From Eledone cirrhosa (Eukaryota): a stretch of DNA of 64,000 bases. A model generated the notes under the pieces. That model searched no databases, had not been told where the DNA came from, and worked only from the letters and a program-made list of their open reading frames with translations. Below, piece by piece: positions 1 through 59,287 of the stretch. The stretch lies in NCBI GenBank assembly GCA_964016885.1, contig OZ024753.1:27590001-27654000 (forward strand), given 5' to 3'. The position numbers and the translations under genes are program-made. Each line of letters begins with the position of its first letter. Positions within the stretch are counted from its first letter, which is position 1.

Positions 1-577
1 ATCTACACACAGAAAAGACGCAATGTTTAGACAAATCACAGAGGCAATAAACATAAAAGAATTACAACCAAAATTAAATAGAAAATATGAGTGGAACAGC
101 AACATCACAACTTACAATTAAGGACAAAATGAAAACACACACACACATAGAACAAAGAACCAACCGGTAACATGTAAATAAACAAATTAATAAACAAATA
201 TAAACACACACAGACACCCAGATGTGGCGCATGCGCAGACTGAGCACACAACACACAGAAACAAAATGGCGTAGGACAGAACAAAGGAGAGGCACAAAAA
301 CAATGAAAAGAATCCCCAGTCACTGATGAGGCCACAAAATGTGTGACGAAAGAACTTTGACAATATATAAACAACTATCTGGTTGTGGAACCAACCAACA
401 AACCAGAAATTTATAAATTTATGAATTCCTAAATTAATAAATTTATTATAATAAATTGAAGTGAAAGCAACTGGTGCGTGTGTTTCTTATTGGCAACATG
501 ACCCTCCCAAAGTATAACAATATCGGTTTCAACACACGATTTCAGATAAAGAATCTTGCTAAACAAATTCAGAAACG
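1..577 (+). mobile_element. 3' end of a Penelope-like element (end of GIY-YIG ORF plus pLTR with HHR); same family as 32391-33740
   Basis: Near-identical reverse complement of 32395-32970; encodes ...STHRKDAMFRQITEAINIKELQPKLNRKYEWNSNITTYN*. Confidence 0.85.
319..361 (+). ncRNA. Minimal type I hammerhead ribozyme candidate (family A); second copy at 32611-32655 (-)
   Basis: GUCA-CUGAUGA-G-GCCAC..GUGUGAC-GAAAGAACUU-UGAC; the second copy has AGUCA/UGACU stem I and GUCACA/UGUGAC stem II; stem III is very short. Confidence 0.6.
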
Positions 578-664
578 ATATATATATATATATGTATATA
601 TATATATATATATATATATATATATATATATATATATATATATATATATATATATATATTTATA

Positions 665-1106
665 TACGATATTAAATAAATGGAAACTATATTTATAAAA
701 CCATATTTATTTCATTATATATATTTCAGGGATATCATATTAACAATATGTTATGCCTTCTTCAGACAAAATACAATATAAACAGTTTTATAGATAAATA
801 GATTTGACATACCGTTCAACATCGACTTGTATTTGAAAAAGTTGATTTTTCAAATACAAGTCGATGTTGAACGGTATGTCAAATCCATTTATCTATAAAA
901 CTGTCTATATTGTATTTTATCTGAAGAAGGCATAACATATTGTTAATATGATATCCCTGAAATATATATAATGAAATAAATATGGTTTTATAAATATAGT
1001 TTCCATTTATTTAATATCGTAAATATACTCCAAATACTTGTTGAGTGCTTTTATATCAGTTATAAATATTTACTAGTTGTAACCCAACAATTTAAATATA
1101 ACTTTC
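665..1106. mobile_element. Palindromic PLE pLTR fragment (about 178-bp inverted arms, 665-1020), family of the PLE at 22572-26503
   Basis: 665-840 is the reverse complement of about 846-1020; matches 22572-22840 and 26330-26503. Confidence 0.85.
913..978 (+). ncRNA. Type I hammerhead ribozyme (family B); other copies 708-773 (-), 22701-22766 (-), 26399-26462 (+)
   Basis: UAUUUUAU-CUGAAGA-AGG...CCU-GAAAUAUAUAUA-AUGAAAUA; core is CUGAUGA in the 22.7 and 26.4 kb copies; palindromic AU stem III. Confidence 0.7.
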
Positions 1107-1179
1107 CATATATATTTATATATATATATATATATATATATATATATATATATATATATATATATATATATATATATAT

Positions 1180-1610
1180 ATCTTTTACTCTTTTACCTGT
1201 TTCTGCTATACCATTAACGTGTTTTTTTCTTTTCGTGCTATTGTTCTCCACGCACCACATATGACGTATTATCTTCGTTTTTTTCGTTCATTGCCAGAGA
1301 ACGTCTCTATGAACTACCTAAGAGAACATTAGTCTACGACCTCTTTTATACCATAAACGTGGATCTGTCTTTGCGCGTATTTGTTTTTCACCGCTCCTAT
1401 TAATGACGTATCTTATTCGTTTTTTCCCGTTCTTTGCCAGCGAACGTTTCCACGAACCAAAGTATCGTATTCCTGTCTTCTTCCGGTTGCAACATTTTTT
1501 GAAATATCCAGTTCTGCGTTTACAGATTGACTTTGTTAGTTTCAGAAGATCCCGTTAAGGGTGAAAGCAGCGATTCTTTGCTTAAACTTTAATCTGTTAT
1601 TTTAATAAAT
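1180..1610 (+). mobile_element. Chimera: short LINE/SINE 3' tail (-, about 1180-1203) fused to a pLTR fragment of the PLE2 family (+)
   Basis: TCTTTTACTCTTTTACCTGTTTC matches the tail at about 61263-61296; 1201-1610 matches 12763-13168. Confidence 0.75.
1538..1588 (+). ncRNA. Hammerhead-like motif with CAGAAGA core (family C); copies 9524-9574 (-), 13096-13146 (+), 29866-29916 (-, decayed), 32232-32282 (+)
   Basis: AGUUU-CAGAAGA-U-CCC-GUUAA-GGG-U-GAAAGCA...UGCUU-AAACU: stems I, II and III all pair. Confidence 0.65.
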
Positions 1611-55800: not shown

Positions 55801-55933
55801 AAATTTTGCTCTGGTACTTACATAGAGCACTCTTCACTCCTATGACTTTTTCAATTCCAACGGAAACTTCAATACCTATATATATATATAATATATATAT
55901 AATATATATATATATATATATATATAATATATA

Positions 55934-57863
55934 TCATAATCTATAAAGCTCAGTGTGTGGTCATGCTCCTTCATTATAGAAATCTACGATATAGAATTTC
56001 TTCAATTGAAATTTACAATTCAATATTCGAAATAGTTTCGATTGCGTCTTGACGCAGATAACTTTTTCAATTTCACCCACAATTACGCAAAAAATAGATA
56101 AAACTCAATATTTTACGATATTTCTCTCTCATTTAAACTGCTGAAACCTTTCTACTACCATTCAAAATCTATACAACTTCATACTTTCCAAGCTTGATGG
56201 TGATACTGTCCGTTCACACCACTCCCTACTGTCTTAAATTTAGAAAACACATATCCTCTATGAGGTTACTAAACCTGCTAGAAACAGCAGCTAACTCTCC
56301 CCCATCTCACACCCCTCCCTACTGTCTTAAATTTAGAAAACATATCTTCTATGAGGTCACTAAAGCTGCTAGAATCAGCAGCTAACTCTCCCCCATATCA
56401 CACCACTCCCTACTGTCTTAAATTTAGAAAACACATATCCTCTATGAGGTCACTAAACCTGCTAGAAACAACAGCTAACTCTCCCTCATATCACACCACT
56501 CCCTACTGTCTTAAATTTAGAAAACACATATCTTCTATGAGGTTACTAAACCTGCTAGAAACAGCAGCTAACTCTCCCCCATATCACACCCCTCCCCACG
56601 CCACTCCCAACTGTCTTAAATTTAGAAAACACATATCCTCTATGAGGTTACAAAACCTGCTAGAAACAGCAGCTAACTCTCCCCCATATCACACCCCTCC
56701 CCACACCACTCCCTACTGTCTTAAATTTAGAAAACATATCTTCTATGAGGTCACTAAACCTGCTAGAAACAGCAGCTAACTCTCCCCCATATCACACCCC
56801 TCCCTACTGTCTTAAATTTAGAAAACATATCTTCTATGAGGTCACTAAACCTGCTAGAAACAGCAGCTAACTCTCCCCCATATCACACCCCTCCCTACTG
56901 TCTTAAATTTAGAAAATACATATCCTCTATGAGGTTACTAAACCTGCTAGAAACAGCAGCTAACTCTCCCCCATATCACACCCCTCCCTACTGTCTTAAA
57001 TTTAGAAAACATATCTTCTATGAGGTCACTAAACCTGCTAGAAACAGCAGCTAACTCTCCCCCATATCACACCACTCCCTACTGCCTTAAATTTAGAAAA
57101 CACATATCCTCTATGAGGTTACTAAACCTGCTAGAAACAGCAGCTAACTCTCCCCCATATCACACCCCTCCCCAAACCACTCCCTACTGTCTTAAATTTA
57201 GAAAACACATATCCTCTATGAGGTTACTAAACCTGCTAGAAGCAGCAGCTAACTCTCCCCCATATCACACCCCTCCCTACTGTCTTAAATTTAGAAAACA
57301 TATCTTCTATGAGGTCATTAAACCTGCTAGAAACAGCAGCTAACTCTCCCCCATATCACACCACTCCCTACTGTCTTAAATTTAGAAAACATATCTTCTA
57401 TGAGGTCATTAAACCTGCTAGAAACAGCAGCTAACTCTCCCCCATATCACACCACTCCCTACTGTCTTAAATTTAGAAAACACATATACTCTATGAGGTC
57501 ACTAAACCTGCTAGAAACAACAGCTAACTCTCCCTCATATCACAACCCTCCCTACTGTCTTAAATTTAGAAAACACACAGACAACCATGCAGAACAACTC
57601 CATCGCAGATCTGTTTTTCGGCTGGCATCGTCTACGCGCGTGTTGCGCAAGTACTGTGAAACAATAAATTTCAACACTTCTTTGCACAGAGATAATATCC
57701 ATAGGCGAAACTACAATTGTCACTGTTGGCGCAGCTCATGCTTCCAGGTCTGCAATTCATTCACCCAGTGCCTGGCAGACAAAAAAGTGCTGCCATAAAA
57801 TGGGTGGTGCAACCTAATTTTGGTAATTTAATGACCCCGAGCAACTACGGGCTTCAATGCTAG
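55934..57863 (+). mobile_element. Non-autonomous Helitron carrying an internal minisatellite
   Basis: A|TC 5' end (TCATAATCTATAAAGCTCAGTGTGTG); 3' hairpin CCCG-AGCAACTA-CGGG, 8 nt spacer, then CTAG|T; no TSD. Confidence 0.8.
56216..57577. repeat. Minisatellite, about 91-105-bp unit, about 14 copies
   Basis: CCCTACTGTCTTAAATTTAGAAAACA...GCTAACTCTCCCCCATATCACACC recurs. Confidence 0.95.
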
Positions 57864-58301
57864 TATATATATATATATATATATATATATATATATATAT
57901 ATATATATATATATATATATATATATATATATATATATATATATATATATATATATATATATATATATAATATATATATATATATATATATAATATATAT
58001 ATAATATATATATATATATATAATATATATATATAATATATATATATAATATATATATATAATATATATATAATATATATAATTTATATATATAAAATAT
58101 ATATAATATATATATATATATATATATATATATAATATATATATATATATATATAAGCTATATATAATATATATATAAATATAATATATATATAATATAT
58201 ATATATATATTATATATATATATATATTACATATATATATATATATATTATATATATATATATATAATATATATATATATATATATATAATATATATATA
58301 A

Positions 58302-59287
58302 TATAGGTGCACAGTTGAGACTGCTTCGAATACCAGCTCTTATATCGGGTCTACCTCTAACCCTTTTAAGGTACGCTATAACGCGCACTCTTTTTCCTTC
58401 CGAGACCCTAGCAATAGATGTTCGACATCGCTAGCTAGGCTCATTAAAAACCTTAAATTAAACAAAGTTCAACACTCACTAAAATGGGATATCGTAGCTA
58501 GGGCCCAACCGTTCAATGGACGAAGGAAATCTTGTGCTCTCTGTGTTACGGAAGAATATTATATAACTCTATCAAGACCTCTACCAATTAACGATAGAAC
58601 GGAGGTAACCATTAGCTGTCAACATCGAAGGGCTAATTCCTTCGCCAATAGAGTTTTTGACCCACCTTAGTCATGTAGCCCCATCTCTAATTGTAGCCAA
58701 TAAGTTAAATTGCTATGAACAACTCGATAATTATAAGTTAGCTCCCCTACATTGTCTCTCAATTAAATAATTTAAATACTAGCACATAACTATAAAATAC
58801 ACACAATCTCTAATCTCTTGAGAAGTTACTTCCCCTGAAACCACCCTCTAATTAGTAAGGTAAATATGCCCTTTGGCAGCCATCTTGTTACCCATAGGCA
58901 GATCTGACACAATGCAGCCTCGACAGATGAGTACTGCTTGATTATGGCTGACAGCTGATGAAACAAAGGCACCATAGTAAAAACTAATATATGGAACATT
59001 GTATTATGTAACATTATTTTAATTTATATTCCTTTGAGTTCCGATGAGCCACTCTGTTTTTTTAAATATGTTAATTATTTTCAACTGAACCAGATCAATT
59101 ATGATACATAGTCATCTGATCCAGAAATAGTATACGGAGTAGCGAAACAATTGTAAACGGGATTTATTATTAATATTATTATTATTATTATTCTCTACAT
59201 TTCTTACATCAAACTAAATATGTTGACAATCTTTTAATAATGTCTTCCTTGTGAAATTTGTGGTCTTGTTTTGCTTAACTAATGAAT
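58302..59287 (+). mobile_element. 3' fragment of a Naiad-like PLE: GIY-YIG tail (58302-58670, absent from the ORF track) plus pLTR
   Basis: YRCTVETASNTSSYIGSTSNPFKVRYNAH...LKWDIVARAQPF..CALCVTEE..INDRTE..CQH*. Confidence 0.85.
59038..59158 (+). ncRNA. Hammerhead variant with CCGAUGA core and long stem II (family R)
   Basis: GUU-CCGAUGA-GCCACUCUGU...ACGGAGUAGC-GAAACAAUUGUA^AAC. Confidence 0.7.

Follow-up and report, generated by a model that had tools for sequence, protein, structure and literature searches.

Why is one stretch of the Eledone cirrhosa genome crowded with hammerhead ribozymes, which elements carry them, and how might those elements spread? The window analysed here is the whole of a 64,000-nt stretch of contig OZ024753.1 in assembly GCA_964016885.1 (positions 27,590,001 to 27,654,000 of the forward strand); the genome comprises 3.0 Gb in 1,796 contigs of up to 443 Mb. 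The window has a GC content of 32%, and (TA)n makes up 8.6% of it in 54 tracts. A first-pass annotation, made from the letters alone, had proposed about 17 families and about 35 copies of type I hammerhead between positions 319 and 59158, in nearly every island that is neither long interspersed nuclear element (LINE) nor Helitron, and had attributed them to a large, probably uncatalogued, ribozyme-driven retroelement system invisible among the open reading frames (ORFs).

The type I hammerhead set in the window is real and lies far above shuffle expectation. The kinds of element are known: Penelope-like elements (PLEs), of the Hydra clade and others, and retrozymes, nested in TA repeats. We think it likely that the window is a nest of Hydra-clade PLEs and ORF-less retrozyme-type units between TA repeats, with hammerheads near the 3′ ends that cut RNA into units and an element reverse transcriptase (RT) that copies these into nicked TA repeats.

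Type I hammerheads in the window and the genome

A strict type I descriptor matched the window four times and never matched in 40 block-wise dinucleotide shuffles; its relaxed form matched 17 times (shuffle mean 0.25). A scored scan returned 25 matches at score ≥26 (0.07 in 30 shuffles). Once widened to longer stem III and variant cores, a step tuned on the window after its sequence had been read, the scan returned 33 motifs (0.04 in 25 shuffles), 26 of the 33 having a fully canonical core (score ≥26). The same widened scan was applied to 56 evenly spaced 10-kb stretches (560 kb) picked before scanning; it gave 48 matches in 26 stretches, while five shuffles gave 0, 0, 0, 1 and 2. The first-pass annotation had expected an excess over dinucleotide-shuffled sequence, and both the relaxed descriptor and the widened scan bear this out.

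At 85% identity the 33 window motifs form 16 clusters. Families F2 (43236, 43859) and M (44676) fall under the scan threshold; adding both gives 18 families. Six copies found by eye (323, 29911, 43236, 43859, 44676 and 46637) bring the window total to 39, some mutated, close to the numbers first proposed, and the outermost motifs (319-361 and 59038-59158) agree with the span then given. Of the 33 islands other than simple repeats, 25 contain a hammerhead, and three of the remaining eight are LINE RT sequence. Low-scoring members (families O and R, and the copies at 29911 and 46637) could individually be dead or wrong. The Rfam model RF00163, with 45 positions, misses long stems and matched the window twice (33.7 and 31.7 bits, both under the gathering score of 34), each time at a compact family D hammerhead; elsewhere in the genome, 18 of 74 scored matches were above the cut-off.

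The scan demands three stem I pairs, and pairing beyond those supports the fold. Stem I positions 4-6 are paired in 74% of cells, a figure somewhat inflated by scoring that favours long stems, against 42% when partners are swapped among 43 families (swap maximum 54%). U4 is kept in 40 of the 43 family representatives and position 3-8 is paired or wobble in all of them, most of which the scan demands. When eight M-like and D-like motifs were aligned to a structure set by hand, 98.8% of cells were paired and five of ten pairs changed on both sides, C3-G8 to U3-A8 among them. Such compensatory changes between families point to selection on the hammerhead fold in most lineages. Circular folds of the F, F2, G and H units are stabler than shuffles (z −3.1 to −4.7), that of E only by −0.8. 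The type III fold of plant long terminal repeat (LTR) retrozymes, which has an open stem III and its cut site upstream of the core, was considered for F and F2 and rejected, since each closes a long stem III and so folds as type I.

The sample density of ~86 motifs/Mb extrapolates to 2.6e5 per genome (bootstrap 1.6-3.9e5), and the window is enriched about six-fold over the sample. An independent whole-genome pattern, which catches 25 of the 48 sample motifs, found 149,904 forward matches against 25,709 for a reversed control (its reverse-strand count of 215,333 includes double counts), and ~2.5e5 motifs is a fair lower-end figure. The sample motifs form 24 families at 85% identity (Chao1 estimate 64). 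Published counts are 126,247 for axolotl (PMC7229834), with a genome of 28 Gb (bioRxiv 10.64898/2026.07.22.740005), and >6,000 for coral, ~5,000 for mussel and ~9,000 for Xenopus (PMC7229834, PMC4209133). As far as we searched, the scale of 2.6e5 exceeds the largest of these and was not found in print, a rough comparison since descriptors differ between genomes.

PLEs and ORF-less tandem units

A tblastn search with an intact 713-aa frame from elsewhere in the genome (L133) matched seven ORF pieces of the window, which are 35-96% identical to it. With one further piece of CCHH type, that of family A, the window contains eight PLE ORF pieces, so the system is not invisible among the ORFs as had been claimed. 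The intact frame, present at L133 and L159, is a single ORF with RT and C-terminal GIY-YIG; it encodes DKT (in place of DKG), a CxCX5C linker, CxxC and CxH, and no CCHH. CxCX5C occurs in five further window ORF pieces. Pfam named no RT domain in the window pieces and gave only weak GIY-YIG matches, and the 713-aa protein had no useful match in Pfam or PDB; a homologue search with it returned 500 homologues, at 38-56% identity among the matches listed. By their motifs, (TA)n insertion and terminal-repeat hammerheads, the seven pieces are classed as Hydra-clade PLEs, likeness to Hydra-1_Obim being judged by eye. Family A, with its CX4CxxC linker and CCHH, is classed as Neptune- or Nematis-like; it supplies six of the 48 sample motifs. 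Hydra-like ORF sequence makes up 1.7% of the 560 kb sampled.

A PLE ORF lies upstream on the same strand in families A, B, C, D, J, L, Q and R, and perhaps K; the family J hammerhead stands 970-1120 nt downstream of a Hydra-like ORF at two other loci. The O and P hammerheads were assigned neither to this group nor to the ORF-less tandem group. Two local rearrangements were seen. A 282-bp inverted copy of an endonuclease end (37231-37512 versus 37815-38096, 99.6%) runs into two tails, with hammerheads K and L, an arrangement that suggests a chimera. A 190-bp short repeat (2070-2259; also 36354-36544) sits in one terminal repeat of family D and not in the other.

Hydra-clade PLEs, the Octopus family Hydra-1_Obim (O. 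bimaculoides) included, are described as (TA)n-targeting and as bearing canonical hammerheads throughout (Craig et al. 2021, PMC8557442). The elements described here share with them the single ORF of RT and C-terminal GIY-YIG, DKT, CxCX5C, CxxC, CxH, the lack of CCHH, (TA)n insertion and inverted 5′ repeats, and their hammerheads are likewise in sense, near the 3′ end, with a U.U mismatch at the stem II base, a genuine stem III and a cut site that is U or A (PMC8557442). They differ from that description in several ways (PMC8557442). Few families are described, whereas here seven ORF pieces within 64 kb range from 35 to 96% identity to one intact copy. Published elements are usually ~3 kb or less, and units here exceed 3 kb (family C ~3.2 kb). 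Family C has U4A where all published Hydra cores start CUGA. A possible further departure is at the place equivalent to the N-terminal RWK motif, where family C reads RLCWR or RLLWR, thus CWR or LWR (the other window ORFs are without this region).

Seven families have tandem units without an ORF: E (483 bp), F (606), F2 (622), G (554), H (523), M (316) and N (981). Their relatives elsewhere in the genome are 70-95% identical, none attached to an ORF except for one neighbour 1.4 kb off. Dispersed, ORF-less and tandem, with a type I hammerhead in each unit, they appear to fit the non-LTR retrozyme type, which they resemble also in being AT-rich, in their predicted self-paired circles and in lying beside PLEs (PMC7229834; bioRxiv 10.64898/2026.07.22.740005). 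Unit sizes of 316-981 bp compare with 170-450 in PMC7229834 and up to 972 in bioRxiv 10.64898/2026.07.22.740005. The present units, read from DNA, differ from published retrozymes in targeting (TA)n strictly and ending at a single fixed 3′ position, in their long and branched stems II and III and in having cores of the U3-A8 or U3.G8 type. Circular RNAs have been shown for coral, mussel and axolotl retrozymes (PMC7229834) and circles have been proposed for PLEs (PMC7229834, PMC4209133); non-LTR retrozymes have themselves been proposed as PLE derivatives (Li et al. 2026, bioRxiv 10.64898/2026.07.22.740005). Another tandem family lies at G000:C1:1241766-1244284, where nine hammerhead-pattern matches recur with a 311-bp period.

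Several cores depart from the canonical sequence. U3-A8, U10.1.U11.1 and U4C are reported natural variants, U3-A8 in Schistosoma PLEs (Perreault et al. 2011, PMC3088659; Cervera and de la Pena 2014, PMC4209133). U4C is read in the window copy of family P, two relatives of which are canonical, and in the single copy of family R; position 16.2, mutated in the window copy of family M, is intact in its relatives in L027.

Of the proposal of a large, uncatalogued retroelement system, the density, the retroelement carriers and a genome-wide number of ~2.6e5 motifs sustain the first part. The word uncatalogued has to go, Hydra-clade PLE partners having been published in 2021 and the tandem units fitting non-LTR retrozymes. 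Ribozyme-driven is likewise more than is proven, since insertion did not depend on cleavage in the only PLE so far reconstituted in vitro (PMC11167929). Our literature search, which did not cover bioRxiv supplements that may list such families, found cephalopod hammerheads only in Craig et al. 2021 (PMC8557442); the individual families, copy numbers and variant cores of this genome were not found in print.

TA targets, proposed priming and the possible role of cleavage

The hammerheads show polarity with respect to TA repeats. A TA tract lies ≤300 nt downstream of the cut in 44 of the 48 sample motifs and upstream in 28 (background 18.6%), and motif numbers track TA tracts (rho 0.69). Read where tandem copies show how the element continues, 3′ ends fall on TATAT in E, F and G (two sites in G) and on ATAT and TAT in C, 25 or 114 nt beyond the predicted cut. 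Cleavage is predicted after H17, which is 13141 in C, 21074 in F and 8761 in E. Five-letter words of the TATAT type occupy 0.5-0.9% of positions in E, F and G. This microhomology of 3′ ends to the TA target is new as far as the literature was searched.

We propose the following course of events. A hammerhead would cut a tandem or read-through transcript, and the unit would be circularised by a host ligase. With (TA)n nicked by the GIY-YIG endonuclease, the TA end so released would anneal to a UAUAU word located ~10-300 nt on the 3′ side of the cut and serve there as an internal primer for reverse transcription. The copy would then cross back over the cut site, yielding terminal repeats in PLEs and arrays of 1.5-7.6 units in retrozymes. 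Insertions would accumulate in regions rich in TA tracts, and this would account for the window's six-fold enrichment. Since the copy would start downstream of the cut and cross it, we infer that the template is a re-closed circle or an uncut multimer. The Poseidon PLE of the green anole, PAc, is similar in its terminal-repeat hammerhead, internal RT start shortly downstream, two alternative 3′ ends and AT-rich target (Frangieh et al. 2024, PMC11167929); it belongs to a different clade, and, unlike in PAc, the 3′ end of most families tested here matches the TA target over 3-5 letters (PMC11167929). A bolder version seems doubtful to us: that this is the largest hammerhead collection in the literature searched, with active Hydra elements whose telomerase-like enzyme primes on circular RNA through TA/UAUAU pairing and may lengthen TA tracts, and with a 22,000-copy family bearing a working U4A hammerhead.

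Several observations weigh against cleavage followed by copying into TA repeats. The family D 3′ end has no TA microhomology, and only one of the four TATAT words in F is used as a 3′ end. The minimum-energy structures of C, A and F2, each folded alone, do not show the hammerhead fold. No likeness of a tandem family to a PLE terminal repeat was found among ~290 loci, a small part of the genome, and for this reason the enzyme that would mobilise the tandem units is suggested by their shared target only. Eight of nine Xenopus retrozyme dimers stayed uncleaved in vitro (bioRxiv 10.64898/2026.07.22.740005). In PAc, hammerhead mutants insert normally, uncut RNA is the main substrate and the priming site is not homologous to the target (PMC11167929).

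The last of these lends weight to the idea that the elements are the same and cleavage is dispensable. Uncut read-through multimers would serve as template, the hammerhead either binding protein or being carried along as a slow or passive passenger, and the U4A motif of family C being dead or crippled. We regard this as a real possibility, though not what we expect. It draws on PLE insertion in vitro without cleavage, on RNA ends at the cut site not having been seen in that system (PMC11167929) and on reports that core changes usually lower hammerhead activity sharply (PMC3088659). Against it stand the constancy of U4 and of position 3-8 described above, most of which the scan demands, and the covariation of stems between families.

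Family C bears most directly on this question. Core position 4 is A in 22,378 exact genome matches and U in 109, the latter fitting random mutation after insertion. The family is young: all 150 ORF matches scored lie at 97-100% identity, and many of them keep the full 713-aa frame. The motif keeps stems I, II and III, is placed as in other Hydra hammerheads and, in tandem copies, precedes the start codon by ~160 nt. That at least 22,378 copies have arisen despite U4A, with no second hammerhead-like motif found in the unit, favours dispensable cleavage. So do the motif positions free of the search pattern, which in 60 C copies are conserved no better than their flanks (one shared variant in 11 columns versus 0.109 per column upstream); from these copies, selection on the U4A motif is not clearly evident. 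Pointing the other way, no variant exceeds 7% in 13094-13160, whereas upstream sites reach ~30%. In contigs of four sequencing runs of undeclared kind, which are not expression evidence, none of 40 listed variants (65 in total) falls in 13094-13160.

A loose genome-wide U4A pattern (69,771 forward matches versus 57,616 in the control) was too unspecific for counting. A second U4A-like family was rejected; it is part of a LINE-like repeat, without stem I and with no TA end, and gives 2,282 matches that begin like the family C core. Neither PMC3088659 (its variant figure lying outside the comparison) nor PMC4209133 nor the Hydra table names U4A, and our search, which did not extend to Lunse et al. 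2017 on PLE hammerhead variants, which may bear on the point, found no paper pairing a hammerhead with U4A. A U4A hammerhead in a 22,378-copy family is thus new as far as the literature was searched.

A second alternative is that the tandem families are satellite-like arrays, expanded mainly by local duplication from single insertions and not by rolling-circle copying. The family F core has 167 exact matches genome-wide; we examined the 40 arrays that best match the window copy, which should for that reason be the youngest. Nearly all 40 lie at separate places on many contigs, yet all share a single end point, 240 nt beyond the cut, from which they run into TA; they span 1.5-7.6 units, with 5′ ends at phases scattered over the unit. 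One fixed 3′ end with scattered 5′ ends fits priming inside circular or uncut RNA. Units differ at a median of one site within arrays versus 15 between them. The core is U3.G8 in 25 arrays and U3-A8 in 11 (four of the 40 were not parsed), and its state is uniform within 35 of the 36 readable arrays. Among 47 sites variable inside an array, only three are variable in another as well, and 10 of 24 arrays have no internal differences. These features make local duplication as the main process improbable. It is favoured by one array, L169 (G000:C1:375510300-375516100), where variants repeat every three units, and by step-like variants in L176 and L183. The simplest account of the L169 pattern is local duplication following insertion; arrays can therefore lengthen in situ as well, a further point to set against RNA copying as the sole source of units. 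TA tracts are longer at the 3′ than at the 5′ end of F-type arrays L161-L199 (median 34.5 versus 16.5, p 0.003), only a hint, with an artefact of poorly defined 5′ ends possible.

Chance matches in AT-rich repetitive DNA, a reading that the post hoc widening of the descriptor and the bare core strings of the stem-less LINE-like family might encourage, are already refuted for the set as a whole by the near-absence of matches in shuffled window and pre-chosen stretches, the polarity to TA, the covariation and the agreement in position with published Hydra hammerheads.

Two questions are open in the field: what a PLE gains from its hammerhead, and whether, and by what route, circles bearing ribozymes are mobilised by PLE enzymes. 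This genome offers a matched test set: a young Hydra family with intact frames, a known target, putative priming sites already mapped, and young non-coding arrays with a fixed end. The natural core variants U4A, U3-A8 and U3.G8 can be counted by copy number. Rfam detects two of the 39 window motifs and Pfam no PLE RT domain, and such elements are probably under-counted. In the main text of a repeat annotation of Octopus vulgaris (2026, PMC13282606) the words Hydra and ribozyme are absent.

Feature coordinates and other window features

Table 1. Hammerhead families and their carriers, in window coordinates
Feature	Position	Strand	Details
Family A hammerhead, 3′ terminal repeat of CCHH-type (Neptune/Nematis-like) PLE	319..361	+	copy 2 at 32611-32655 (-)
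Family B hammerheads, inverted pair	708..978	.	708-773 (-), 913-978 (+)
Family C U4A hammerhead, solo terminal repeat	1538..1588	+	more copies 29866-29916 (-, mutated), 32232-32282 (+)
Family D Hydra PLE	1627..8654	-	direct terminal repeats 6651-8654 and 1627-3723; broken ORF 6404-3928; compact hammerheads 6801-6838, 1777-1814
Family E, 483-bp tandem unit	8653..9324	+	hammerheads 8683-8766, 9166-9249; second array 44995-45660, hammerhead 45394-45477
Family C Hydra PLE	9500..13256	+	inverted 5′ repeat with hammerhead 9524-9574 (-); ORF 10342-12168, one stop; 3′ repeat with U4A hammerhead 13096-13146
Family F, 606-bp tandem array, 2.7 units	20299..21928	+	hammerheads 20341-20473, 20947-21079, 21553-21685; U3.G8 core, long stems II and III
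Family B Hydra PLE	22571..26511	+	inverted 5′ repeat with hammerhead 22701-22766 (-); truncated ORF 23900-25000; 3′ repeat hammerhead 26399-26462 (+)
Family G, 554-bp tandem array with inversion	26559..28902	.	five hammerheads: 26834 (-), 27388 (-), 27943 (-), 28195 (+), 28749 (+)
Family A PLE ORF, 5′-truncated	32849..33739	-	CX4CxxC linker, GIY-YIG with CCHH; hammerhead ~200 nt downstream
Family J hammerhead, very long stem II	34066..34220	-	relatives 41511-41652 (-), 42508-42649 (+)
Family K hammerhead	35483..35553	-	1.5 kb downstream of inverted endonuclease fragment 37230-37012; link to ORF uncertain
Family L Hydra PLE 3′ part	37507..39957	+	endonuclease fragment 37507-38013; microsatellite-rich tail; hammerhead 39864-39923
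Family F2, 622-bp tandem array, ~70% like F	42729..44231	+	U3-A8 hammerheads 43233-43365, ~43856-43988
Family M, 316-bp tandem unit	44387..44877	+	U3-A8 hammerhead ~44673-44714, position 16.2 mutated
Family H, 523-bp tandem unit, ~70% like G	45860..46768	+	hammerheads 46108-46190, 46637 (stem I broken)
Family N, 981-bp unit with terminal repeat	48763..49964	+	hammerhead 49650-49774
Family Q Hydra PLE	50238..52524	-	truncated ORF 52524-51334; hammerhead 50238-50288, TA tract 10 nt beyond
Family O hammerhead	52570..52667	+	
Hydra PLE ORF and family P hammerhead	53933..55775	.	ORF 55665-53933 (-); hammerhead 55698-55775 (+) at ORF 5′ side
Family R Hydra-like PLE 3′ part	58305..59158	+	endonuclease fragment 58305-58643; hammerhead 59038-59158

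Two hammerhead-like strings were rejected and not counted. One is a minus-strand CUGAUGA in an unassigned repeat at 29061-29672 and 30748-31661, which occurs between TA tracts as three partial copies; the string stands ~55 nt from the end of the repeat and has no GAAA or stems. The other, a degenerate string at ~19944-19975, has a six-letter core. A tRNA search found none.

The window also contains other repeats. An element at 19236-20301 has a 239-bp inverted repeat (19340-19578 and 20063-20301). At 55927-57863 a minisatellite of ~60-bp units leads into a short hairpin and then, just before TA, a CTAG end, an arrangement resembling a Helitron 3′ end. A LINE-like fragment at 60633-61151 (-) encodes a PHD finger (E 1.5e-7), and a related repeat elsewhere carries a hammerhead-like string without stem I. 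One LINE ORF (14085-17219, minus strand) is open over 1045 aa with endonuclease and RT domains, and a second LINE is present as two copies, 46902-48735 (+) and 61153-63020 (-), 93% alike and in opposite orientation.

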